Assembly (NCBI GenBank): GCA_002269645.1
Contig: NIVC01002715.1
Coordinates: 1 to 36,786, forward strand
Length of the DNA stretch: 36,786 bases
Direction of reading: 5' to 3'
From: Macrostomum lignano
Taxonomy: Eukaryota
Positions within the stretch are counted from its first letter, which is position 1. Every line of letters starts with the position of its first letter. The notes beneath the pieces are model-generated. The model did no database searches, was not told the origin of the DNA, and saw only the letters and a list, made by a program, of their open reading frames with translations. The position numbers and the translations under genes are program-made. Below are positions 6,047 through 35,505 of this stretch, piece after piece.

Positions 6047-7563
6047 TCAGTGAATGTGTCAGTGTGTGTTATGGGTGTGTCAGTGTGTGTTATGGGGGCG
6101 TGTCAGTGTGTGTTATGAGGCGTGTCAGTGTGTGTTATGAGGCGTGTCAGTGTGTGTTATGGGGCGTGTCAGTGTGTGTTATGGGGCGTGTCAGTGTGTG
6201 TTATGGGGCGTGTCAGTGTGTGTTATGGGGCGTGTCAGTGTGTGTTATGGGCGTGTCAGTGTGTGTTATGGGGCGTGTCAGTGTGTGTTATGGGCGTGTC
6301 AGTGTGTGTTATGGGCGTGTCAGTGTGTGTTATGGGCGTGTCAGTGTGTGTTATGGGGCGTGTCAGTGTGTGTTATGGGGCGTGTCAGTGTGTGTTATGG
6401 GCGTGTCAGTGTGTGTTATGGGCGTGTCAGTGTGTGTTATGGGGCGTGTCAGTGTGTGTTATGGGCGTGTCAGTGTGTGTTATGGGGCGTGTCAGTGTGT
6501 GTTATGGGCGTGTCAGTGTGTGTTATGGGCGTGTCAGTGTGTGTTATGGGGCGTGTCAGTGTGTGTTATGGGCGTGTCAGTGTGTGTTATGGGGCGTGTC
6601 AGTGTGTGTTATGGGCGTGTCAGTGTGTGTTATGGGCGTGTCAGTGTGTGTTATGGGGCGTGTCAGTGTGTGTTATATGCGTGTCAGTGTGTGTTATGGG
6701 CGTGTCAGTGTGTGTTATGCGTGTCAGTGTGTGTTATGGGCGTGTCAGTGTGTGTTATGAGGCGTGTCAGTGTGTGTTATGGGCATGTCGTGTCAGTGTG
6801 TGTTATGGGCGTGTCAGAGTGTGTTGTGTGTCAGTGGCCTGTCAGTGTGTGTTATGGGCGTGTCAGTGTGTGTTATGGGGCGTGTCAGTGTGTGTTATGG
6901 GGCATGTCAGTGTGTGTTATGGGGCATGTCAGTGAATGTGTCAGTGTGTGTTATGGGGTGTGTCAGTGAATGTGTCAGTGAATGTGTCAGTGTGTGTTAT
7001 GGGGTGTGTCAGTGAATGTGTCAGTGAATGTGTCAGTGTGTGTTATGGGGCATGTCAGTGAATGTGTCAGTGTGTGTTATGGGGCGTGTCAGAGTGTATT
7101 AAGGTGCGTGTCAGTGAATGTGTCAGTGTGTGTTATGCGGCGTGTCGGTGAATGTTTCAGTGTGTATTTTGGGGCGTGTCAGTGAATGTGCTTGTGTGTG
7201 TTATGGGGTGTGTCAGTGGATGTGCTTGTGTGTGTTATGGGGTGTGTCAGTGAATGTGTCAGTGAATGTGTCAGTGTGTGTTATGGGGTGTGTCAGTGAA
7301 TGTGTCAGTGAATGTGTCAGTGTGTGTTATGGGGTGTGTCAGTGAATGTGTCAGTGAATGTGTCAGTGTGTGTTATGGGGTGTGTCAGTGAATGTGTCAG
7401 TGAATGTGTCAGTGAATGTGTCAGTGTGTGTTAACGGGTGTGTCAGTGAATGTGTCTGTGTGTGTTATGGGGTGTGTCAGTGAATGTGTCAGTGTGTGTT
7501 AACGGGTGTGTCAGTGAATGTGTCAGCGTATGTTATGGGTGTGTCAGTGACTTTTCAGTGAAT
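6047..7563. repeat. Minisatellite, 21-22 bp unit GTGTCAGTGTGTGTTATGGG(G)C, grading into 12-bp GTGTCAGTGAAT units at the 3' end
   Basis: Direct reading. All ORFs called here are repeat translations. Confidence 0.96.
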
Positions 7564-7981
7564 GTGCCTGTGTTTTGCTGGTTGATATGCTTGGTTAGTC
7601 AAAGAGGAAACAATAAAAGATATGCAAAAAAACTCAAGAGAGTCCAAATGTTTGTTATAACTCATTTTTAATTGTACTAAAACTTACTTAGCCACCAACG
7701 AGCACTTGAGCCCTTCCTGCTGAGCCTTTCCTGGTACAAAATTTGCCCTTTTTAGACTTTATTCGGTCTTCCAATCGACTCTCCCTTTTTGCCAGTTAGA
7801 AATCCTCACGGGGTTGGAATCCACACTAATTGAAAGTGAAATTAAAATTATTTTCTGTTGGATTTCGAATGTACGAGCTACATGTACTTTACGCGTGCAT
7901 TTTACGCGTACATATTTTCTGCGAAACGTAGTTGTCCACTCTTTCCCTTTCCCATCCCATCCGGGCCTTGGGTTGAGGAGG

Positions 7982-9033
7982 TCATGGAGACGTCAGTCCC
8001 TCGTCACGCCGCTGCTCCACCTCCGTCTCCAGGTAGACGCAGCCGTTCCTCGCAAACAACGTCACGAGCCGGTCGGTCCCCACGAATTGCAGCAAAACTC
8101 CGTCCCGCTTTCGCCAATTGACGGCTGCTGAGCGATGAAACTTGCCCTGACAACCAAGTCCTCCGTGTGGCGCTGCCGATGCAGCAGGTGGAAGGTGACT
8201 CTGGCGACAAACGGCCAATCCCACATGTCGTCGAGTTCGGTCTGGACGAGCTCTAGCTGAGTAGTCACGTGACTACGGTCGGCGTCCGCCTGTCCGTTGA
8301 GAAACAACCTGACACGGAACTTGCGGCCGTATCGCTGGGTCATGAAAGGCGGAGACAGCAGACAGGCTGACGGGTTGCTCGCCGCCTCCCGCAGTCTGTC
8401 GGCGATGCCAGTGACTTTCCACAGCAGGCAACCGTCATAAGAGATCTGCTCCAGGGTCTCAACGCGTCGCGTGATTCTGCGCAGCTCCTGCTGTTCACTC
8501 GCTTTTAGTTTGGCTTGCACGCAATGCAACAGGGTCCTGAGACCGCTGGCTCCGCCAAACTCCTTCATCAAGCCCTCGATGGCAATGGTTGTCAGAGCCC
8601 AATCAGCTAAACTAGGCTGAATTCTCTTCAACGCAGCAAACAATCGCAATACGTTTTGCTCCCCAGACCGAATTTCTCATGCTGTAGGCTGCAGGGGATC
8701 CAGGGCTGAGGCCTTGAACTCATCGCAGATGAGCTCCAGATACTTTTCCGCCCCAACAGCGTAGTGGCCATTCAAATTCTCTTGAGTACTCTGGAAATCG
8801 CACCCGAGACGGCAGAATCTGCAACTAACCAGCTTCTTGGGGCACTCGGCCTTGTGACGCTGAAGATCATACGGATTGAATGAACCTTCGTGACAGAGCG
8901 CGCACTCAATGACTTCATCGCAAGCGATCCCCGATGATTGGCGCAGTTGACTGGCGACTTCCCTGGGAAGCTCCATGGATTCAGGAAGGTCAGCAGCTGC
9001 TATTTTTGCGGTCTGGTACTTTGACGGTTGCAT
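7982..9033 (-). pseudogene. TRAF-family gene (TRAF zinc fingers, coiled coil, MATH/TRAF-C domain; no RING seen), interrupted by one in-frame TGA and one frameshift
   Basis: Zn fingers CALC-x12-H-x3-C and CRFCRLGC. MATH motifs SYDGCLLWKV, SPPFMTQRYGRKFRVRLFLNG and DWPFVARVTFHLL. ORFs 8677-9033 and 8062-8649 share a frame, separated only by TGA at 8677-8679 (PTA*EIRSGEQNVLRLF). The TRAF C-terminal strand LQFVGTDRLVTLFARNGCVYLETEVEQ continues in another frame from ~8100 to the stop at 7982. The lesions could be sequence errors. Confidence 0.8.
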
Positions 9034-9060
9034 GCCAGTCTGCTTGTAAATGATTACCGA

Positions 9061-9251
9061 AAGAATTCCGGGGCAATTCGTTGGTTTTCCTGCAGAATTT
9101 CCGCAGAGTTTCTACTCTGCTCAAAAACTGTACATTAATCTCTACACTGTGTACGTGGGTCCCAGAGTGTACAAGCGTACAGCGTGGCAGAAGGCTTTTC
9201 CACGGGTTTGCCGGGGAATTGCCTGCGTAGAACTTGCGCCCCGGAATTACC
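9061..9251. promoter_or_regulatory. Cluster of Rel/kB-like motifs upstream of the TRAF gene
   Basis: GGGCAATTCG (9071-9080), TGGTTTTCC (9082-9090), AGAATTTCCG (~9094-9103), GGCTTTTCCA (~9193-9202), GGGAATTGCC (9214-9223), CGGAATTACC (9242-9251). All are near-consensus rather than perfect. Confidence 0.3.
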
Positions 9252-9916: not shown

Positions 9917-12900
9917 TCAAAGCTTCAGCTCAGAACCGATCATTTGTTGCCACATTGCTCCTGCTAGCTGCCACTTTCGCTGCAGTTCCTCCGTCAGCCA
10001 TCGGGGAAGCGCCACATTCAAACTGAGCAGCTTCTCAAAAATGAGCAGATCCGTTTTGGGCTGGACAGAAAACAGGGCAGCAACCAGCAGCTCCTGAATA
10101 TCCGCGTCCTCCCGCTCAGCCACAGATTGGATCCAGGCCTTGGCATGGCGGACTTCGCTGTCGGGTAGCAGCTCAAGTCTCAAGGCCCACAGCAGTGCAT
10201 CGAAGTTTAAGTAGAAATAATCTGCGCCACTATGAAATTTGAGCGGGAAACACTTGATCAGAACTCCAGTTAAAAAAATTAATTTTGGGCGCCTTTCGAA
10301 CTCGAAGCAGAACTTCCACGCGGAGTCCCGGCTCCTCAGATGCCACCACACAAACTCCGTGGTCGCCTCGGTCGCCGACCTCTCAGCGGACCAAGCGATG
10401 CCTCTGCTCACCGAGAGGCCTCTGCACTGGCTCACGATTCTCTCTGCAGTTCCTCGGTAGCCGAACTTCAGGCAGGCCAGCGCTCTGAGAGCCTCCCGAG
10501 CTGAGCCGGTGCAGTCTGGCAGTCTGGCAATCAGCTCTGTGAGCGACTCCTGAGACAGCGGGCTGCAGTCACCATGGGAGAGACGCACCAGACACTCCCT
10601 CACCACGTCGTAGATCTCGTGGTACTCGACAGTGTTTGAGTTTGGCAAAGACCTCAAAACTAAAACTGGCAGGGTTTGGAACGGGTGGAAGTAGAATATC
10701 CCAGACTCATCCACAGGTCTCAGACTGCTCATGAACTGCTGCAGCAGCTGAGGCAGCCGATCAATCACTGTTCTCAGTGTGCTCGCGATGCTGCCCAGAG
10801 TCTGGTCCATGCTTCCGTCTTTCCCCACTGCACCCTTGAGGTACACAGCGACGTCGCTCAGGAAGAAGTGCTCCATGATCCGGCCGTGAGCATTGTCGGG
10901 CGAGCGACTGCTCTCCACACAGTCAAGCAGCATCTGCAGAGACCTCCTCACGAGACTCACGAGGTTCTCCGGCTTCCACTGTTCGACCGGCGTCTCCTCC
11001 ACCATTCGGAACGTGATGGACTTCACATGGTACGGCTTGAGGCCTTGCTGGTTGAAGCCGTCCTTGCTGCAGATGACCTTCTTGACCAGGTACTTAAGAG
11101 TGACGAACAGCTGGCCTTGGAGAGTAGTGAGACTTCTGAGCATCCGCTTCTCCAGGAAGCTGGTGCTCACACGGAGCTCCTGGCCTCCTCGACTAGGAGA
11201 GGCTGCGTGCACCACGTGACAGGGCGTTGAGTCAGAGTCGACAACCCTCTGGAGGGCCTGCAGCACCGGCTTTGGGATGTTCGATCGGGAGATTCGATGG
11301 GGCTGGAGAGGCGCGATGGGCGGGTAGCGGCAGCAGCGGCCAGCAGAAACCCTGTCCATGGCTGGCCTCAGTGCCGAACCGTCTGACGGCAGAGCAGGAT
11401 TCGATGCTGCAATGGCAGTATGAGATGCATCGTAATTGACGCATTGCATGAAAATGAATCTAATATAATTACTTCAATAATTTGTTATAATTACTAAGAA
11501 AAACCTGGCAGTCGTCGATTTTGTTAAGCTGCCAAACCAAAGCAAGGATTAATTCATCATCTTTTATTCAAATAGAATTGAAACTCACAGTATCCTTTAC
11601 ACTGAAGATGCCCATTGCTCAACTCATGCTGGACTGGATGTCCGCTGCACTTGCATATGCCTGTCGGGTGGTACAGCTTTCCAGGAATCAGCTCCATCAC
11701 ATCAATGTCTGAAGCGACGTCAGTTCTGCCGTCCAGTGTTTTCAGATTGTTTCCCCAGCCTTCAGAGTAGCTGCCAACCACAAAGCGCTTGTCGTAATCC
11801 TGCCTCCTTCTCAGGATCTCCTGCAAGACGTCGGCAACTGCGCTCTGCAAAGCGGCTCTGGAGTCCACAAATCCTGCATGAATAAGCATCGAGTGCAGCT
11901 GCAGGCCAAGTGGATTGCTTGGATTGTCTCTGAAATCGCGTATGGTTAATTTTTTATGTGATTTTAGATACATTTCGATCCTATGCTTCAAGTTTGACTC
12001 GTTTTTTTTAAATCCAACTTTACCTGATCTCAGAAATCGATAAATCTGCTTCGTGCAAATTTTCATCCAGTGAGCAAACAGATTTACTCATGTCTGCCTG
12101 TGCCAGCATGAGCAATCTAACGACATGTCGGTGACCCTTCAGTGATGCAATCTGTAGAGGCGAGCAGCCGTCGTTTCGCTGAAGATTTACGTCAGCCTGG
12201 GCTTTTATGAGTAAATCTACGATTTCTTGATGGCCTCTGCGTGCCGCAATGAACAGAGGCGTTTCGCCTGCGTTACTTTGAACATTGACGTTGGCTTGTG
12301 CTCTGATGAGCAAAACCACTACTTGCTGGTGGCCATTGTGGGATGCAATGTGGAGTGGCGAAGTTCCGTTTTGAAGTTGGAAATCAACGTTGGCACTCGT
12401 TCTGAGGAGTGACGTCACAACTTGCTGATGTCCATTTTGTGATGCCACAAAGAGAGACGACTCACCGGTTTTTCTTGAAAGATTAACATCGGCTTTGGCT
12501 TCTATGAGCAAATGGACAACTTGGAGATGACTCAGATGAAGGCAATGTATAGAGGCGACTCGCCCGAGTTTCGTTGGAGATTAACATCTGCTTGGGCTTT
12601 GATGAGCACTTCTACCACTAGCTGATGACCATTCTGTGAAGCAATGTAAAGAGGGGACTCTCCAGTGTTGAGTTGAAGATTGACGTTGGCTTGTGATTTT
12701 ACGAGCAATGTCACCACACGATGATGACCATTCTGTGAAGCAATATAGATAGGTGACTCGCCAGTGTCTCTTTGAAAATTAACATCTGCTTTTGCAGTGA
12801 TGAGTGACTCGGCAATTTCGCTATGACCCTCATGCGACGCTATATAAAGCGGCGACTCGCCAGTGTCTCTTCGAGTATTGACGTCTGCTTGCGCTTTGAT

Positions 12901-14493
12901 GAGCAAGTCTACGACTCTTTTGTTATTATTTTGCGACGCAATGTATATGGGTGAGCATCTGTCGGTCTGTTGAAGATTGATATCAGCCTGGGCTTTGATG
13001 ACGGAGTTAACTATTTGGTGATGTCCATTTTGCGAAGCAAGAAAGAGAGGCGAGCAGCCATAAATATCTTCTTGGAGATTGACATCTGCTTGAGCCTTTA
13101 TCAGCGAGTCAACGATTTGATGGTGGCCTTTGTGAGACGCAATTATCAGAGCTGTTTCACCCGTGTTTCGCTGATGATTAACGTCGGCTTGCGCTTTTAT
13201 TAGTGAGTCCACGACTTTGCGATGACCGTTCTGCGATGCGATGTAGAGTGGTGACGAGCCATTAACGATCTCTTGACGATCGATGTGTGCCTGCGCCTTA
13301 ATGAGGGATCCAGCAATTCGTTGATGACCGTTCTGCGATGCAATATGAAGTGGGGAAATTCCGTCCCTATTTTGAAGATCGATATCGACTAAAGCAGTTA
13401 TGAGTAAATCCAGCACTTCCTGATGACCTTGTTGGGACGCAATGTAGAGAGCTGATGAGCCATTTACTCGCTCCTGAAGATTGACGTCGGCTTGCGCTTT
13501 AATGAGCGAGGTCACTACCTGCCAATGCCCCTGTTGTGCTGCGATGTACATAGGCGAGCAGCCATGAATGTTTTTCAGATTGACGTCCGCTTTTCCTTTA
13601 ACAAGCGATTCAACTATTTTCCGATGACCTTTGTGCGATGCGATGAAGACTGCCGATTCACCGGTACTGATTTGAAGGTCGACTTCCACTTGCGCTTTAA
13701 TAAGCGAGTCGACAATTTGGTCATAGCCTCGAATCGATGCAATATGGAGAGTTGATGGACTATTTGAATTCTTTCGAAGATTGGGATCGGCTTGCGCTTT
13801 GATAAGCAGATCGACTACTCGCTGATGACCGCTCTGGCACGCGATGAAGAGCGGTGACACCCCGCTGTCTCTTTGGAGATTGACGTCAGCTTGTGCCTTG
13901 ATGAGCGAGTCCACAACTTTTGCGTGGCCACTCTGTGCAGCGATATACAGCGGTGTGGTGCCATCGAAAAGTTGAAGGTTGACATCGGCGCGTGCTTTGA
14001 TGAGCGATTCAACGACCTTCTGGTGACCACAATGAGATGCTATTGTGAGAGGTGTGTCGCCAGTGTTTTGTTGAATATCTACATCAGCTCCCCCTTTAAT
14101 GAGTCGATCCACAATTTGCTGATGACCATTCTGGGATGCAATAATAAGAGGTGAAAAGCCGTTGACTTGATCTTGAAGATTGACACCAGCTTTAGCTCTG
14201 ACAAACATATCCACCACACGAACCTTGCCAAGAGCGCAGGCCAGATGCAGTGGGTAGAACCTTTGCCCACTCAAGGAAAGTTTTCTTGTTCTGTTAGCTG
14301 GATTTTTCAGGTAAAGCGCGATGCGCTCGAGGTCTTCAGTGTTGACCGCCTCGAGAACTTCTTCGTCGGTCATTTCTGATGCTCCATCCTGAGAGGCAGC
14401 CCTACCAAGGACTGCATCAGCAGCACAGCAACAGTTCTGAGGGTCGTCCAGAGTGACTTCATGAAGTGAGCTTTTCGAATTGGAGTCGCACAA
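9917..14493 (-). CDS. Ankyrin-repeat / cGAS-like (Mab-21 family) nucleotidyltransferase fusion, ANK-cGLR. Exons ~14493(or ATG 14373)-12024, 11929-11589, 11406-9917; one frameshift at ~12537
   Basis: 22 ANK repeats (PLxIASxxGH). Intron 12023-11930 (AG|GTAAAG...TTTCAG) joins EIR to DNPSNP in frame. Intron 11588-11407 (GTGAGT...TTGCAG) joins KGY to SSNPALP in frame. NTase motif VGSYSEGWG...SDIDVM and third acidic residue in MDRVSA. Mab-21 motifs RVSTSFLEKRML, LKPYHVKSITF and MEHFFL. AATAAA lies ~30 nt after the stop. Confidence 0.85.
11589..11929 (-). other. Exon encoding the NTase catalytic core of ANK-cGLR
   Basis: GSYSEG...SDID motif, flanked by consensus splice sites in compatible phases (2 and 1). 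Confidence 0.82.
12024..14493 (-). other. Ankyrin-array exon of ANK-cGLR (22 repeats; 1-nt frameshift inside repeat 18)
   Basis: ORF 12532-14493 ends PLYIAFI*. The shifted frame continues SHLQVVHLLIEAKADVN into ORF 12020-12511, and one added base restores the 33-aa periodicity. The track start at 14493 is TTG just after a possible acceptor AG; the first ATG is 14373. Confidence 0.88.
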
Positions 14494-15679
14494 CTTGTTT
14501 TTCGAGTGGAAAAAAAGAAAGGCGTGCCTTTTCTGTCACACTATTATCTAAATAGTTAGAACTTCCAGTCTAGGAATGCTCGCTATACACACTCTCTACC
14601 CTCATGATTGCACAATGCAGTGGAGGGACGAGCGGACATGTAAAATGTGGATGTGCAGTCATTTTCTTCACCTTACTACTTTTTACACCCGTTTCCATAG
14701 CCGTCCGTCCTGTTCTTTTATGTAGCTATATGGAAAGGGAATCTACAAATTTAGTTACTCATCGATCGGTTACGGTTTTCTTGGACTGTACTGCTTCTTC
14801 GTGCGTTGCAGCGTTTTTTTATAGTAAGTACATTCCTAGTTATTTTTACTCTACTCTGAGCGAGAATGTTTTCCCCAGCTTGTACGCTTGTACAGTAGGT
14901 AAAGTCTACCAAAGCACAATAAGCAGTTCTTGTACAATTAAATTTCTAACCAATTTTCTCCCTCTGTCGGCCTTATTGGCTGACTGACTTCTCTCTGCAT
15001 AGGTCAGTCTATAAGAACGCCTACTTTCATGTAGAAGACGATTTATTAATGTCTATGGCCTCCCACAGCCAAGGAAAGTTGATACTTTGGTTTCAGACAA
15101 GCGATTTGCATTATCCCTTCATCCATGCCGCACTCAGACCAGACAAACGTTGTTTAGAGCCAGCTACACCGCGGACAGATCAACAGACGCAATTGAAATC
15201 CGAAATGCAAGCAAGTTCGGAGCTCAAGGAATTGCAAATATTGTACTATCTCATGGTGTTCAGTGCGCAGGCCTTCTTCATCATGGTGGTCAGTGTGCTA
15301 TTCTTCAGTGTTTCAGTAGTAGTACTCAGTCCGAACATTGAGTCCGATTAGAAACTGTGCAATCTACAGAGCCCCTGGCATAAGCAGTCACAGGTTATAT
15401 GAAGCTTTTAAGCAAATTCGTTCTCATTAGTCATTTGTTCTTGTTTTTTAATGTCTCCAGTCTATTACGGATTATTCAGTAAAAAACTAACGTACATTTG
15501 AAATAAATGCATGTATTTATTATTCATTAAAACGTAAAACAGGTTTCTCTTCGTTGTTTTAACTAATCAATTATAAGTTCGTTCTTTGGTCCTTACTTCA
15601 AGACTAGCAGATGTAGAATTCACTCATACATGCCAGGCTTTGGACACATCTGATGTATTGTGTAATTTGTGTATACTAG

Positions 15680-16712
15680 CTACACCTTTTACTTTCTATT
15701 TTGAAAAATCTGCACTTAATATTGACATATTTGCATTCAATTTTGACAGTCTGTGGTATCCCTTGTTGACATTTTCAACCTATTTTGACAAACCCAAATG
15801 CAATAATGACGAATTTCAACCAAAAATGACAAACTCCAACCTTTATTAACAATTTGCATTCAATTTTGACACTGGGTTACAAAATAGTGCCTTTTTCTCG
15901 CTGTCTATGGAACAAAACTTGCATATGTGCATCCATTTTTGACAAAGTGCATCCAAAAGTGACAGATTACATTACATTGTATTCAAGGGACTACTCAGGT
16001 GTTTGAGTAGTCCTTAATGGATTGCATTGCACACATTGAATTTTTTTCAGTTAAACCGCGCGTAATACAGTGATAATCAGTTTGGCAAGTCGTATTATGT
16101 TCTGTATGGCATGTCCGCGTGTCAACGCCATAGTTAGCGACGACGACCGGTTAACCCAGTAATTAACCGGTTAGAAAAAGTCGTGCCCGTGAGAATGGTG
16201 ACGACTTTTTTACCTGACTCGTACCTTGGGGATCAAAACAACCACAGCGTATGCCATTGTTAGAAGTGGACGAGTAGAAAAGCTGCTAAATGGAGATCAG
16301 CCGTTCAGATCACTCATGAGCGCATTGAAACTGTTGAATTGGTTGGGATCTGAGTGGGCTAGGGTTGATCTGAGCCATAATAGTCACTTTTGGATGCACT
16401 CTGTCAAAAATATGGATGCACGTATGCAAGTTTTGTTCCATAGACGGCGACGGCGAGACAAAGGCACTGTTTTGTAACCCAGTGTCAAAATTGAATGCAC
16501 ACTGTCAAAATTGCTTGCAAATTGTTAATAAAGGTTGCATGGAGTTTGTCATTTTCAGTTGAAATTCGTCACTATTGCATTTGGATTTGTCAAAAAAAAG
16601 GTTAAACATTTCAACAAACGATGTTAAGGATTGTCAAAATTGAATGCAAATATGTCGATATTGAGTGCAGATTTTTCAAAATTAAAGTAAAAAAGAAAGT
16701 AAAAAAGCGTAG
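15680..16712. mobile_element. Foldback/MITE-like element with long imperfect inverted arms (~15680-15893 and ~16461-16712) around a ~570 bp spacer
   Basis: TTTTGAAAAATCTGCAC...TTTGCATTCAATTTTGACACTGGGTTACAAAATAGTGCC on the left is mirrored by GGCACTGTTTTGTAACCCAGTGTCAAAATTGAATGCA...GTGCAGATTTTTCAAAA on the right. No transposase or clear TSD seen. Confidence 0.6.
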
Positions 16713-17480
16713 TCATAGTCGACTTAAATGTTCGGAGACCTATTAACCCATTTTTCGAGTAAACAGACGGTGACTTATTATAGGGAGACAATTAGCCGAC
16801 TTTGCGCTAGAGTTCAGGTGGGAAAATTAGCCCTTTATTATCAGAGTCTTTGTTTGAATTTGTCTTTCCAAGAAATGCCTTTCATAAAAAAGAAAGGCAC
16901 CAAAAATGTTAACTCTGAGGTGGGGGTAGAGAAAGTTTTCTTGGAAGGTTGGCGGGTTTGCTGACACCAATGAGGTGGGGCGGATTCCACGTTTGAATTC
17001 CCGCCAGCGTTGCGTTCGCACGAATAAATACGGAAATCGCGCAGACGAATCACAACGGAATTCTTTCTCCTGTTTTACTCCGACTGCTGGGGTCCTCAAG
17101 TTCCGGGGGGAGGATAGTCGTAATCGTAGCGGAGCGGTCGTGCAGCGGCGCGGTCGTTCAAATGGTAGACACCGAGATTTTGACACCGTAGATTAATGTG
17201 TCGATTTGCTGAGCTGGTTACTTTCCGTAGGGTAGAGCTGCCACCACCGTAATTTACGTATTACGGAACGAATAAGTCTCAGAAACTTTCTTTGAGCTGA
17301 GAACTTTTTTACGCCCCTCGGGCAAATGACTCAAGATAGGCTATGGCTTAACGTCAACGAATAATTAATGAGCGTAGCGATTACGGATCGGTTATTTTTG
17401 TGGCTATTAATTTATTTGAGATGTTATTGTAGCAGGCTAGTAGACGGCATGAGGGGGCTTCTGGGACAAAATTTTTCACC

Positions 17481-19330
17481 TCCTCCATAATCCACCTAAA
17501 TCCATCCATATTATCCCTGACAGAATCAGAAAAAAAGGGGGGTCGCACTCGCTAACAAAACGTCCTCCATAATCCACCTAAATCCATCCATATTATCCCT
17601 GACAGAATCAGAAAAAAAGGGGGGTCGCACTCGCTAACAAAACCTCCTCCATAATCCACCTAAATCCATCCATATTATCCCTGACAGAATCAGAAAAAAA
17701 GGGGGGTCGCACTCGCTAACAAAACGTCCTCCATAATCCACCTAAATCCATCCATATTATCCCTGACAGAATCAGAAAAAAAGGGGGGTCGCACTCGCTA
17801 ACAAAACGTCCTCCATAATCCACCTAAATCCATCCATATTATCCCTGACAGAATCAGAAAAAAAGGGGGGTCGCACTCGCTAACAAAACGTCCTCCATAA
17901 TCCACCTAAATCCATCCATATTATCCCTGACAGAATCAGAAAAAAAGGGGGGTCGCACTCGCTAACAAAACGTCCTCCATAATCCACCTAAATCCATCCA
18001 TATTATCCCTGACAGAATCAGAAAAAAAGGGGGGTCGCACTCGCTAACAAAACGTCCTCCATAATCCACCTAAATCCATCCATATTATCCCTGACAGAAT
18101 CAGAAAAAAAGGGGGGTCGCACTCGCTAACAAAACGTCCTCCATAATCCACCTAAATCCATCCATATTATCCCTGACAGAATCATAAAAAAAGGGGGTTC
18201 GCACTCGCTAACAAAACGTCCTCCATAATCCACCTAAATCCATCCATATTATCCCTGACAGAATCAGAAAAAAAGGGGGGTCGCACTCGCTAACAAAACG
18301 TCCTCCATAATCCACCTAAATCCATCCATATTATCCCTGACAGAATCAGAAAAAAAGGGGGGTCGCACTCGCTAACAAAACGTCCTCCATAATCCACCTA
18401 AATCCATCCATATTATCCCTGACAGAATCAGAAAAAAAGGGGGGTCGCACTCGCTAACAAAACGTCCTCCATAATCCACCTAAATCCATCCATATTATCC
18501 CTGACAGAATCAGAAAAAAAGGGGGGTCGCACTCGCTAACAAAACGTCCTCCATAATCCACCTAAATCCATCCATATTATCCCTGACAGAATCAGAAAAA
18601 AAGGGGGTCGCACTCGCTAACAAAACGTCCTCCATAATCCACCTAAATCCATCCATATTATCCCTGACAGAATCAGAAAAAAAGGGGGGTCGCACTCGCT
18701 AACAAAACGTCCTCCATAATCCACCTAAATCCATCCATATTATCCCTGACAGAATCAGAAAAAAAGGGGGGTCGCACTCGCTAACAAAACGTCCTCCATA
18801 ATCCACCTAAATCCATCCATATTATCCCTGACAGAATCAGGGGGGTCGCACTCGCTAACAAAACGTCCTCCATAATCCACCTAAATCCATCCATATTATC
18901 CCTCAGGTCGGGGTCGACACTCGCTAACACGCTAACACCTCCATCCATATTATCCCTGACAGAATCAGAAAAAAAGGGGGGTCGCACTCGCTAACAAAAC
19001 GTCCTCCATAATCCCATTAAATCCATCCATATTATCCCTGACAGAATCAGAAAAAAGGGGGGTCGCACCTGCTCACAAAACATCGTCCATAATCCCATTA
19101 AATCCATCCATATTATCCCCGACAGAATAAAAAAAAAGGGGGTCGCACTCGCTCACAAAACATCCTCCATAATCCCATTAAATCCATCCATATTATCCCC
19201 GACAGAATAAGAAAAAAAGGGGGGTCGCACCCGCTCACAAAACGTCCTCCATAATCCCATTAAATCTATCTATATTATCCCCGACAGAATCTTGAAAAAG
19301 GGGAGGGGTTGCACTTGATCCGAAAACTTT
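17481..19330. repeat. 82-bp tandem array inside the left TIR, ~22 copies
   Basis: Unit TCCTCCATAATCCACCTAAATCCATCCATATTATCCCTGACAGAATCAGAAAAAAAGGGGGGTCGCACTCGCTAACAAAACG, with starts at 17481, 17563, 17645 and onward. Confidence 0.95.
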
Positions 19331-19576
19331 AATCCCATTAAATCCATCCATATTATGACTGACAGAATATGGGAATATGGGTCCACTGACACCTGTTATG
19401 CTCACTGACACTGACATAATCCACTGACATCCACCCATAGCATCTTCGAAACAATCAGAAAATAATCTGCATTCTTCTCCCCACATTCAATCCGCAACGT
19501 GCGACCAGATCCCTAAGACTTTAAATCATCAGCGCAGGGTCCTCACCCTTTAAAAAAAATTAAATTTTCTCTAAAA

Positions 19577-19816
19577 ATGTTTCCAGTTGTCTCTCCAGGT
19601 TCTTATTACAAAGCGCACGAGCCTAATTACAAGAGTAAGTACCGATGCAAACTAGAATGCAGCGAGTACATGAGAAAATATTGGCCCGACGTTGATATCA
19701 ATGTCCCTAATATTAATCTAGCTCTCCAAAGACACTGGTTTCATAAGTATGGAGTAACCTACGTAAAAGATTACGACAGCTACTATAACTTTGTAGAAAT
19801 CATTAGACAATTGTGA
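19577..19816 (+). CDS. ORF79, Tyr-rich 79-aa hypothetical protein encoded in the TIR (copy 1)
   Basis: Intact in both TIRs. The copies differ by 4 synonymous changes and 3 conservative amino-acid changes (V/A, V/A, R/K). Confidence 0.65.
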   Translation: MFPVVSPGSYYKAHEPNYKSKYRCKLECSEYMRKYWPDVDINVPNINLALQRHWFHKYGVTYVKDYDSYYNFVEIIRQL

Positions 19817-19820
19817 TTTC

Positions 19821-20683
19821 TTACATTCTTTCAATGATCAACGTCAATACAAACTCTTCCCATTAAAATCAACGCCCATCCCATCTTCAGTCTCAAACTG
19901 TAGCACAATCTCGTGAATCTCCTTATTACTCAATACAACTCTTTTCACTGGATTTGGTTTCTCTACCACCATCTGTCCTCCAGCTACAGAGTTGGAGATG
20001 TTGTACAAAATATTAGTTCGCTTTCCCTTAAATACCCAATCAAGACTGAGATTAGTTCTGATTAGAATATTCAAACCCTTTACAATGTCTGCTATATTGG
20101 GTGCTAAGAACAAACCGCGTACACTTTCCCGGGCCATGCTAACGGCCCCCGATGCTTGAGTGACAGTCCGCGCTGTGGATTCTGCCTTATAAACTTTCTT
20201 CACGAATCCCAATTCCCTATACCAAGTGTCATCTTTAAACTCAACCTCCGCATCTTTGTGAACTTGCATGACCACTCTCATTACAGTGAGATCATAGGTT
20301 AGTTTAACAGGGAACAGTTTCTTCTCTGGCTTACTCATATCAGGTGTCTCAAAATGGCCTCTTTTAGTAAAGACGTTTTCTAGAAAGTAATTGTAGGTAT
20401 CCACACTTTGCGTGCTCACAGGGAATACCACAGGTTCTGCTGCTGCACCTTTCCATTTGTAATAAAACTTATTATTTGCTGCCGTCACATTGGGAACGTT
20501 TGACCAACCAGTGAAGTCGTTAAGATAGACATGGTAATTAGCACCTGGATCCAGGCGAATCGCCTGCTCTAATTTTTCAACAAACATCCCGTTTGAGTCA
20601 TTAATTCGCCCAGTTATTGTAATAGGAATGCTCTCCTTGGAGTGTGAAACAATGTTGTTTAGTCTTTCGGCTATAGCTTCCAT
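19821..20683 (-). CDS. Minor capsid protein (penton, Polinton PX); 1-nt frameshift near the C-terminus
   Basis: Penton-like motifs IRLDP..YHVYL, WSNVPNVTAANNKFYY, TNILYNI, EKP..V, IHEIVLQF.TEDG..VDFNG. The duplicate in the right TIR shows the intact end GEEFVLTLIIERM*, placing the stop at 19821-19823. Confidence 0.82.
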
Positions 20684-20708
20684 TTTTTTTCACCCACAAA
20701 AAAAATAT

Positions 20709-32576: not shown

Positions 32577-33228
32577 AAGAGCTGGGGGTAGAGAGAGCGC
32601 TTGAGTCGGGAAGGGCATGAGCAAGTGTGGATTTGAGTAAGTACAGTTTTTTATTCCCTAAAGAGTTGCGCACAAGAGAGATTCTCATTCTTCAGAGAGC
32701 TAAGAGCAGAAAATGAAAAAAAAGTCAACCGCTTCACCGCCATTAGCATGCATGGACTGCTTGGGATTCCTTGATTGATATTGATTATTGGCCAAATTGC
32801 GAGGCCAGTTGGCCCGCCGAGTTGGCCTCGGCCCGCCGATTTGGCCTCGGAATGTGGCCCGCCTTTGTTGGTCTATACGGTATGAAGATATGGGGGGGGT
32901 AGAGAGGGGCGCTTGAGTCGGGAAGGGTTTAACTATTATTCTCAACCCTGGCCAAACGCGACAGCTGCATTTGAAATGTTGAGAAGCAGAAGGGGGGTGG
33001 GGTAACTGCTATTGCTGAGGGGGGGGGGCGTAGCCCTCTAATCGATTTTGCGAATGTACAAGTTCCACGTGTGCATTCCTTTCCGCTTTGACAACCGGAG
33101 GGAAGGAAGCGGGTGGAGGGAATTGATCGCTCGGAAGCTAGTTAAAGCAAGCAAGAAAATTCAGCTCATTTTGCTCGCACACGTTCTTCGTCGCGCAATA
33201 CTGCACCGTTGTGGCTGCTGATTTCATT

Positions 33229-33616
33229 ATGTTGTAAGTTTATTCATTTTTTACTTACTGAAATTCTATACTGTGTTAAGAATTGAAAAATCTCTTATTT
33301 TGATTAAATCTTTGTTTTTAGTTCACAAAAAATTACGTTCTACTCGACCGACCTAGAAAATCTCCATGGTCGCCTTGTTGAAGGATTAGATGCCAACGAA
33401 CCGGCATCAGAGAGAATTCAAGAAGTTCTCCATCATTTCTTCAATGAAAAAGTTGAGAACCAGCGAATTTGTTCAAGAGCGGCCATGGAGACCCAGGATA
33501 ACAACTACGCCATGAGAACCGAAATGGTGTTTGACGAACTTCGCCGATCATTTGTTGCTGATGAAGATTCACTTCTTAGTTATCAACAAATTTTTTCCAG
33601 GATTTTATCAATGTAA
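33229..33616 (+). CDS. Putative spliced 99-aa hypothetical viral gene (exons 33229-33233 and 33322-33616)
   Basis: ATGTT|GTAAGT ... TTTTTAG|T gives an 88-nt intron and exactly 300 nt of CDS: MFSQKITFYSTDLENLHGRLVEG...QQIFSRILSM*. Confidence 0.5.
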
Positions 33617-34157
33617 GCTACTGATAGTAGTCTTCTAAACACTTTCCTGGATCTCCAAGATTTTTTTCCAGGATTTTTTTTAAACTCGTGCCAATTCCTG
33701 ACAATACAGGAATTCCTGACAATACAGGAAAGTCTTTTACTGGATTTTTTCCAGGATTTTATCAATGTAAGCTACTCATAGTAGTCTTCTAAACGCTTTC
33801 CTGTATCTCCAAGATTTTTTTTAAACTCGTGCCAATTCCTGACAATACAGGAATTCCTGACAATACAGGAAAGTCTTTTACTGGATTTTTTTCCAGGATT
33901 TTATCAATGTAAGCTACTCATAGTAGTCTTCTAAACACTTTCCTGTATCTCCAGGAATTTTTTAAAACTCGTGTCAATTCCTGACAATACAGGAATTCCT
34001 GACAATACAGGAAAGTCTTTTACTGGATTTTTTTCCAGGATTTTATCAATGTAAGCTACTCATAGTAGTCTTCTAAACACTTTCCTGTATCTCCAGGATT
34101 TTTTTTAAACTCGTGCCAATTCCTGACAATACAGGAATTCCTGACAATACAGGAAAG
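33591..34157. repeat. ~142-154 bp tandem repeat x4, each with a nested 18-bp duplication and the palindrome CAGGAATTCCTG
   Basis: CCAGGATTTTATCAATGTAAGC recurs at 33597, 33751, 33893 and 34035. Confidence 0.92.
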
Positions 34158-34489
34158 TGCTGTTCACAAAATGACTGGGAGGAAAATCAATATTATTCTG
34201 GATCCGAAGAATATCGATTTTGGATTGTGTGAGGATCTACAATATCTTGTTCTTTCTCTACCTTATTCATTTCCAGCCTTGCAACTAAGCTTGCGCGTCG
34301 CGGACCAGCATTAGCTGGGGTAATTGGGGGTGTGTGGCGACTCCCCCAGTCCTTGGACTGAACAGCCGTACGCAGCCTTCAGATCTGCTCTTTCCTCCTT
34401 TCCTTTCCTTTGTTTTATGTAAATATACTTGTGAATAAATGAACTCAGTATGTTTTTTAGTAAGCTTTTGTGTTTGCTTTTCGATTTCT

Positions 34490-34660
34490 TCTGTTGCTGG
34501 AGGACAGATGGTGGTAGAGAAACCAAATCCAGTGAAAAGAGTTGTATTGAGTAATAAGGAGATTCACGAGATTGTGCTACAGTTTGAGACTGAAGATGGG
34601 ATGGGTGTTGATTTCAACGGTGAAGAGTTTGTATTGACGTTGATCATTGAGAGAATGTAA
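34490..34660 (+). pseudogene. Duplicated 3' fragment of the penton gene
   Basis: SVAGGQMVVEKPNPV...GEEFVLTLIIERM* has the same peptide as the penton C-terminus, but no upstream penton sequence. Confidence 0.85.
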
Positions 34661-34664
34661 GAAA

Positions 34665-34904
34665 TCACAATTGCTTAATGATTTCTGCAAAGTTATAGTA
34701 GCTGTCATAATCTTTTACATAGGTTACTCCATACTTATGAAACCAATGTCTTTGGAGAGCTAGATTAATATTAGGGGCATTGATATCAACATCGGGCCAA
34801 TATTTTCTCATGTACTCGCTGCATTCTAGTTTGCATCGGTACTTACTCTTGTAATTAGGCTCGTGCGCTTTGTAATAAGAACCTGGAGAGACAACTGGAA
34901 ACAT
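34665..34904 (-). CDS. ORF79 copy 2 (right TIR)
   Basis: 76 of 79 residues identical to the 19577-19816 product. Confidence 0.65.
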   Translation of the reverse strand: MFPVVSPGSYYKAHEPNYKSKYRCKLECSEYMRKYWPDVDINAPNINLALQRHWFHKYGVTYVKDYDSYYNFAEIIKQL

Positions 34905-35505
34905 TTTTATTGAGAATTTAATTTTTTCAAAGGGTGAGGACTCTGCGCTGATGATTTAAAGTCTTAGGGATGTGGTAGCACGTTGCGGATTGAATGTGTG
35001 GAGAAGAATGCAGATTATTTTCTGATTGTTTTAGAAATGTTATGGGTGGATGTCAGTGGATTATGTCAGAGTCAGTGAACATAACAGGTATCAGTGGACA
35101 CCTGCTCTGATTCTGTCAGGGATAATATGGATGGATTTAATACGATTATGTTCGAAGTTTTCGGAGCAAGTGCGACCCCTCCACTTTTTCATGATTCTGT
35201 CGGGATAATATGGATGGATTTAATGGGATTATGGAGGACGTTTTGTGAGCGAGTGCGACCCCCCTTTTTTTCTGATTCTGTCAGGGATAATATAGATGGA
35301 TTTAATGGGATTATGGAGGAAGTGAAAAATTTTGTCCCAGAAGCCCCCTCATGCCTTCTACTCTAGAACTATATAACTTTTGATATTTCCCGGGCTAAAA
35401 CTACTAATAGTAACGTAAATTCATGTCTGAATTTTCGTCCTATCTTACGGGTTCCCATGTCGCAGAAATCCATCTCGACAACCTTGATCTCTTGAGTTCT
35501 CGACA

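Follow-up and report, generated by a model that had tools for sequence, protein, structure and literature searches.

Animal genomes commonly contain Polintons that encode capsid proteins (PMC8502044, PMC11131425, 10.1101/2023.08.22.554363), and insertions of the Polinton type have previously been reported in flatworms (10.1101/2025.04.19.649669). The Alpha adintoviruses, or Group 2 Polintons, combine a DNA polymerase of the PF03175 type (PolB) bearing OTU-like motifs with an rve integrase, an FtsK-type ATPase, adenain, hexon, penton, phospholipase A2 (PLA2) and terminal repeats in about 18 kb (PMC8502044). Their Mayetiola-class virion module carries PLA2X, i.e., a PLA2 domain with a C-terminal pX-like domain (PMC8502044), and PLA2X marks modules of the Alpha class as GasderminX marks those of the Beta class (Starrett et al., PMC8502044, section 3.2). 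Here, we describe an integrated Alpha-PolB Polinton (adintovirus) with a divergent capsid set in a stretch of 36,786 nucleotides from the flatworm Macrostomum lignano (assembly GCA_002269645.1, contig NIVC01002715.1, positions 1 to 36,786)—hereafter, the window. Searches of the literature on Macrostomum, Schmidtea and flatworm Polintons and Mavericks, repeat databases and subscription journals excepted, gave no description of this family.

An Alpha-type Polinton with a divergent capsid set

The gene content was established by a Pfam scan of 60 stop-to-stop pieces of the window, a further scan of 11 pieces, and 37 profiles of open reading frame (ORF) families built from 23 IMG/VR loci and run against 481 window pieces. 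Catalytic motifs were placed by pattern search, the patterns being family motifs read off the translation of the window (coordinates of all features are collected in Table 1). The protein-primed PolB matches DNA_pol_B_2 (PF03175; E 1.5e-7) and Endonuclease_7 (E 2.8e-5), retains all six Exo and Pol motifs and is matched in six pieces by the IMG/VR PolB profile. Its predicted OTU-like N-terminal domain is placed by pattern, with the Cys motif at 29716 and the His motif at 29378. A search with the polymerase core returned 3,870 homologs among 7,991 scored candidates; the 120 homologs listed are 36-49% identical, and they include the PolB of a Corynactis coral adintovirus (P0079), 43% identical in the core, a virus shown within the Alpha panel in Fig. 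S2 of Starrett et al. (PMC8502044). A separate search of phages gave no related loci for PolB. The earlier note on this DNA had asked for a PolB phylogeny; a quick tree of one window piece and 40 of the 120 homologs (41 rows) could be built, and in it the element forms a long, unplaced branch, at most 51% identical to any other row.

The integration, packaging and protease genes were recovered as well. The packaging ATPase matches Pox_A32 (E 5.7e-6) and the corresponding IMG/VR profile (E 2e-44), with no related loci for it found in viral contigs. For the integrase, the rve family of Pfam scored only E 0.064, and the Polinton integrase profile matches three pieces (best E 1e-6). Adenain, likewise, matches Peptidase_C5 below the cut-off on a single 57-aa piece (E 7e-4), and the Polinton adenain profile matches three pieces at E 1.5e-19 to 3e-6.

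The virion genes, like PolB, are divergent. The major capsid locus is recognized by its IMG/VR profile (E 8e-19), and a natural homolog, P0136, aligns along the locus and is 66% identical to the last window piece; all other full-length matches share at most 36% identity. The capsid fold was read from P0136 and not from the broken gene of the window itself: P0136 matches PF21738 (E 1.7e-7), and its structural model, with a predicted local distance difference test score (pLDDT) of 83.9, finds the PBCV-1 capsid protein as best match (Z 25.0, root-mean-square deviation (rmsd) 3.4, 341 aligned residues). The penton matches its IMG/VR profile (E 1e-20), and the best viral matches of its model (pLDDT 60.5) are minor capsid and penton proteins (E 2.6e-9), with a middling score against the mavirus penton (Z 7.0, rmsd 3.9, 108 aligned). 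No related loci for penton or capsid were found in metagenomes, and a sequence search of the PDB gave nothing useful. The PLA2 gene matches Phospholip_A2_4 (E 1.6e-6) and its IMG/VR profile (E 2e-13); no pX-like C-terminal tail was recognized on this broken gene, and the pX-like motifs sit in a separate one. The latter was called from motif order, since the pX-like family profile matched none of the 481 window pieces: three pieces can be aligned, in the same order, to IMG/VR ORFs, and of three such ORFs two match Adeno_PX weakly, under the cut-off. Hence, of the gene set claimed in the earlier note, PolB, integrase, ATPase, adenain, capsid, penton and PLA2 were recovered, together with a pX-like gene by motif order, and two items were not—the pX tail of PLA2 and a gasderminX-like gene. 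No gasdermin match was obtained from Pfam in the 60 pieces, and the candidate proposed for it (25528-26276) aligns only with ORFs of two IMG/VR Polintons, L001 and L005.

Set against described groups, the element shares its core architecture with the Beta adintoviruses (the Terrapene class, with GasderminX and Cupiennin), but differs from them in the PF03175 class of its PolB and the presence of PLA2, no gasdermin-like match having been obtained in the pieces scanned. It shares with Alpha adintoviruses the PolB type with OTU-like motifs, the integrase, ATPase, adenain, hexon, penton and PLA2, the terminal repeats and the length, yet departs from them in sequence and in having an inverted repeat that includes an ORF and the 3' end of the penton gene. 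Three IMG/VR loci (L001, L002 and L005) have PolB, integrase, ATPase, penton, capsid, adenain and PLA2 in common with it, and the first and last of these also a two-helix membrane protein; identity, however, is only 18-49% per aligned stretch, the gene order differs, their PLA2 bears an N-terminal DUF5679 that was not seen in ours, and they contain extra fibre-like ORFs of which none was detected in the element. L001 (63-13445) and L005 (3-14511) themselves appear to be Polintons free of breaks; both hold the same core and accessory genes, arranged in a common order. The element is thus a divergent family, but not a new kind of element.

Terminal repeats, frame breaks and the origin of this copy

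The element spans 17,924 bp, from AGTAG starting at 17439 to CTACT ending at 35362, exactly the termini proposed earlier, and its length and terminal inverted repeats place it within the Polinton size range of 13-25 kb (10.1101/2023.08.22.554363). The claimed inverted repeats were borne out as well: the outermost 161 nt (10 mismatched positions between left and right) and the inner arms (19160-19990 and 34490-35323; 92.7% identity across 838 columns) align in inverted orientation at both ends. The gene body is close to the form common in the family, yet substitutions separate the inner arms at 26 of 612 columns—about 4% divergence—and, at three of the positions at which they differ, short-read contigs of run X14 contain both forms at about half depth each. 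No target-site duplication of 4-8 bp was detected at the junctions (offsets of up to 3 scanned), the sole match being a 4-mer that overlaps the terminus; the flanking sequences are CAGGCT on the left and CTAGAA on the right, where duplications of 5-8 bp are normal for Polintons (10.1101/2023.08.22.554363). Given the missing duplication and the unequal inner arms, the simplest reading is that the two ends come from two different insertions, and we regard it as likely that either the assembler, bridging an 18-kb repeat, or genuine recombination joined them. The second option would make the locus a true recombinant, in which a crossover in the living genome between insertions of two slightly different variants paired the left flank of one with the right flank of the other. 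The mismatched flanks, the presence of both repeat variants in short-read contigs and the 24 versus 3 array units in the two repeats are what such an event would leave; if a repeat of 18 kb with many copies were mis-joined in an error-rich assembly, however, the picture would be the same, and we consider a genuine crossover improbable.

Nearly every gene of the element is broken, only the ATPase and the 79-aa ORF of the repeats being free of breaks, so that the description of the provirus as complete holds for its gene content and not for its reading frames. Taking all evidence together, we find it reasonably probable that the locus is an Alpha-type Polinton of a young multi-copy family, in which the breaks are likely assembly errors and the ends likely derive from two insertions. 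The competing account is that the breaks are genuine: a single decayed or dead-on-arrival copy, with the rest of the family intact, in which the target-site duplication and the identity of the repeats eroded in place. The absent duplication and the divergence of the repeats speak for it, as do the lack of any link between breaks and homopolymers and the inability of contigs to reveal a rare copy. The structure of the PolB gene speaks against it. Along full-length homologs, PolB falls into six overlapping stop-free pieces, with five frame changes and not one nonsense codon in about 3.6 kb. Under a null model of decay by substitution only, 4% divergence would bring 5.5 stops (zero stops in 0 of 300 runs) and 2% divergence 2.9 stops (zero in 6% of runs). 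The lack of nonsense codons therefore makes old decay unlikely but says little against recent decay. The 79-aa ORF is also at odds with decay, as it is stop-free in both arms, with seven differing codons (four synonymous and three non-synonymous).

Independent short reads bear on the same question. In 20 of the 24 listed runs, from seven studies, 0.69-0.74 of the sampled words of the window are present, a share (69-74%) close to that expected from one difference per hundred letters; one run may be the source of the assembly. Contigs from four runs, belonging to four studies, span the compared part of the gene body, with all 30 bins of 19350-32000 covered. The comparison with these contigs rests on the best 12 of 159 rows of length differences, 40 of 226 rows of substitutions and 32 of 14,075 pieces. 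Over eight pieces each, contigs of runs X1, X6 and X14 differ from the window by 0.33-0.38% in substitutions and by 0.40, 0.44 and 0.09% in gaps, respectively, the contigs of X2 being noisier (1.7% substitutions and 1.9% gaps). Gaps are thus as common as substitutions in two of the three low-noise runs, a pattern rarely produced by neutral decay, and the suggestion of the earlier note that the fragments do not reflect old decay is probably right. Long stretches are identical between contigs and window: one X1 piece, in PolB, agrees in 879 of 879 letters, and another shows no substitution and seven gaps in 762. The best 12 length-difference rows correspond to nine sites, six of them at a frame change placed by homologs or by the start codon, two in the integrase and pX-like genes and one unassigned; at four of the nine, the contigs of two or more runs depart from the window in their entire depth. 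The 226 substitution rows point to a family of variants. The claim that the provirus is young fits the family and is less secure for this particular insertion, with its missing duplication and unequal repeats. In the 3' region of the integrase (31374-31376), contigs of three or four runs have a short GT-rich insert or a loose end, a length variant of the family.

Several observations weigh against assembly error as the source of the breaks. At 1% divergence, the null model gives 1.35 stops, with zero stops in 28% of runs. The contig pieces compared were the longest ones, which favours conserved stretches, and contigs lose rare variants, so that a single copy with real breaks, surrounded by many intact ones, would give the same result. 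The X14 pieces contain few gaps; in X2, only a minority of the depth differs at most listed sites; and left and right repeats that differed in every copy would likewise produce the half-and-half depth in X14. Long homopolymers show no excess of breaks (2 of 16 intervals), and the ankyrin gene of the host flank, too, is broken. On balance, most frame breaks probably stem from an unpolished assembly of a young multi-copy family, and an authentically decayed copy appears unlikely, if somewhat less so than the recombinant discussed above.

Predicted life cycle and the case for particles

By analogy with the known family, the DDE integrase would excise the linear genome and insert it at its AG...CT ends, and replication would start at the inverted repeats, primed by PolB via its N-terminal protein domain. 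The vOTU protease may free this terminal-protein domain from PolB, following a hypothesis put forward in 10.1101/2024.03.18.585575. The capsid and penton proteins are predicted to form an icosahedral shell, which the ATPase would fill and adenain would mature, and PLA2 together with the pX-like peptide could act in membrane entry (PMC8502044).

Whether such particles are formed at all is the point at issue in a further alternative—a self-synthesizing transposon that spreads within cells only, keeps its virion genes and makes particles never or rarely—which is compatible with a young multi-copy Alpha-type Polinton read through assembly errors. In the portions of PMC8502044 and PMC11131425 drawn on here, direct particle evidence for animal Polintons is thin; it comprises one unpublished co-purification from insect cells (PMC8502044, Discussion; cited in PMC11296320), and in corals the hallmark genes of Polintons are expressed (PMC11131425). 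On the other side, capsid, penton, ATPase and protease retain folds or catalytic motifs, and of 13 close penton homologs (54-65% identity, all on short contigs) 10 are near full length. These near-full-length homologs and the conserved folds and motifs suggest selection on the virion module, and we treat an exclusively intracellular element as a real, if less favoured, possibility. Existing reads of this often-sequenced flatworm could test both expression and particle formation of an animal Polinton.

A more specific proposal, which we think very improbable, is that a particle-forming lineage with a host-restricted capsid clade is still spreading and is an unprotected target of the predicted GGNCC-cutting nuclease of a co-resident Polinton family. 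It draws on 30 GGNCC sites in the element (26 expected, hence no avoidance), one of them within the codons of the PLA2 calcium loop, and on the intron-free PLA2 gene, no Rfam match to a group I intron being present in the element. If true, two endogenous viruses sharing one animal nucleus would be in a conflict of the restriction type. No look-alike of the element was found among the stretches noted for other Polintons of this genome, and it appears to form a separate family. Taken by itself, it is one more divergent member of a large known group, of value as an intron-free, GGNCC-rich comparator.

Accessory genes, sequence features and host surroundings

Table 1. Features of the element, in positions of the window
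Feature	Position	Strand	Remarks
Left terminal inverted repeat	17439..19990		AGTAG start; contains 82-bp tandem array, about 24 units
79-aa ORF in left inverted repeat	19577..19816	+	Unbroken; second copy in right repeat (34665-34904, -)
Penton (minor capsid), 279 aa	19844..20683	-	At least one break; frame change near 3' end, inside inverted repeat
Major capsid protein (double jelly roll)	20709..21997	-	Four pieces; frame changes near start, near 21640 and near 21355
Conserved Polinton accessory gene (tentative)	22028..23224	+	About five pieces
Short gene with amphipathic, GSG-containing stretch	23241..23660	+	Pieces; end approximate; IMG/VR likeness by eye only
A32/FtsK-type packaging ATPase	23804..24604	+	Unbroken; Walker A, Walker B, RGRH
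Coiled-coil-like ORF	24694..25226	+	Pieces; 83-bp internal duplication
Hydrophobic two-helix membrane-type protein	25528..26276	+	Two pieces (at least one break); homologs in IMG/VR Polintons L001 and L005
Adenain (adenovirus-type cysteine protease)	26243..26641	-	Three pieces; His/Asp/Gln/Cys motifs
Protein-primed PolB, Alpha (PF03175) type	26675..30502	-	Six pieces; vOTU-like Cys and His, Exo I-III, EndoVII-like insert, Pol A-C
pX-like gene	30697..31076	-	At least three pieces; end approximate
Retrovirus-like DDE integrase	31093..32078	-	At least five pieces; D, D, E motifs
Parvovirus-type PLA2 (PLA2X-like)	32107..32576	+	At least two pieces (at least one break); calcium loop and HD motif; no group I intron
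Accessory ORF, about 100 aa	33229..33616	+	Predicted 88-nt GT-AG intron
142-bp tandem array	33667..34158		3.5 copies
Right terminal inverted repeat	34490..35362		CTACT end; about 3 units of the 82-bp array; copies 3' part of penton gene and 79-aa ORF

The accessory genes are assigned with varying firmness. The two-helix membrane protein, tentatively labelled SLATT-like, matches an IMG/VR profile (E 6e-6); a large protein search (51 candidates) returned no homolog of it, and the ESM Atlas gave no usable match. In the tentative accessory gene at 22028..23224, likeness to an IMG/VR Polinton family is confined to the C-terminal piece (hhalign E 0.003, probability 9.5%), and the IMG/VR profiles of the long accessory and amphipathic families matched none of the 481 window pieces. 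Weak ESM Atlas matches for 22364-22711 were not adopted. The 79-aa ORF of the repeats matched neither Pfam nor any of the 23 IMG/VR loci. No TBP match was obtained from Pfam in the 60 and 11 pieces scanned, among which short or broken pieces could conceal one.

The accessory ORF near the right end is predicted to be spliced: an ATG and two further nucleotides are followed by an intron (33234-33321, GTAAGT...TTTTAG), the removal of which would join them in frame to a 100-aa ORF. Nine low-depth joints in short-read contigs were not taken as splicing. An A/T tract ending in AAAAATG precedes genes between 19573 and 34908, with 10 of 18 such words at gene starts, two of which were themselves chosen by the word; the TAAGAA box occurs 19 times in the element, once directly before a gene start. 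The 82-bp array occupies 17481-19368 on the left and 35106-35323 on the right, the difference in unit number being either a genuine expansion or an assembly artefact.

Outside the element, Pfam matches to TRAF, ankyrin and Mab-21-like genes indicate an animal host. On the minus strand, a host gene at 9917-14535 encodes upwards of 20 ankyrin repeats and, after them, a Mab-21-like domain (E 1.6e-4) and is broken by frame changes; in a TRAF-like gene at 8062-9111, an in-frame stop separates the zinc finger from the MATH domain. Closer to the left terminus, an inverted repeat of 81% identity (15687-15963 and 16383-16692) resembles a decayed miniature transposon. Satellite arrays occupy 1-2215 and 6056-7573, the first built of 33 copies of a 67-bp unit and the second of 21-22-bp units.

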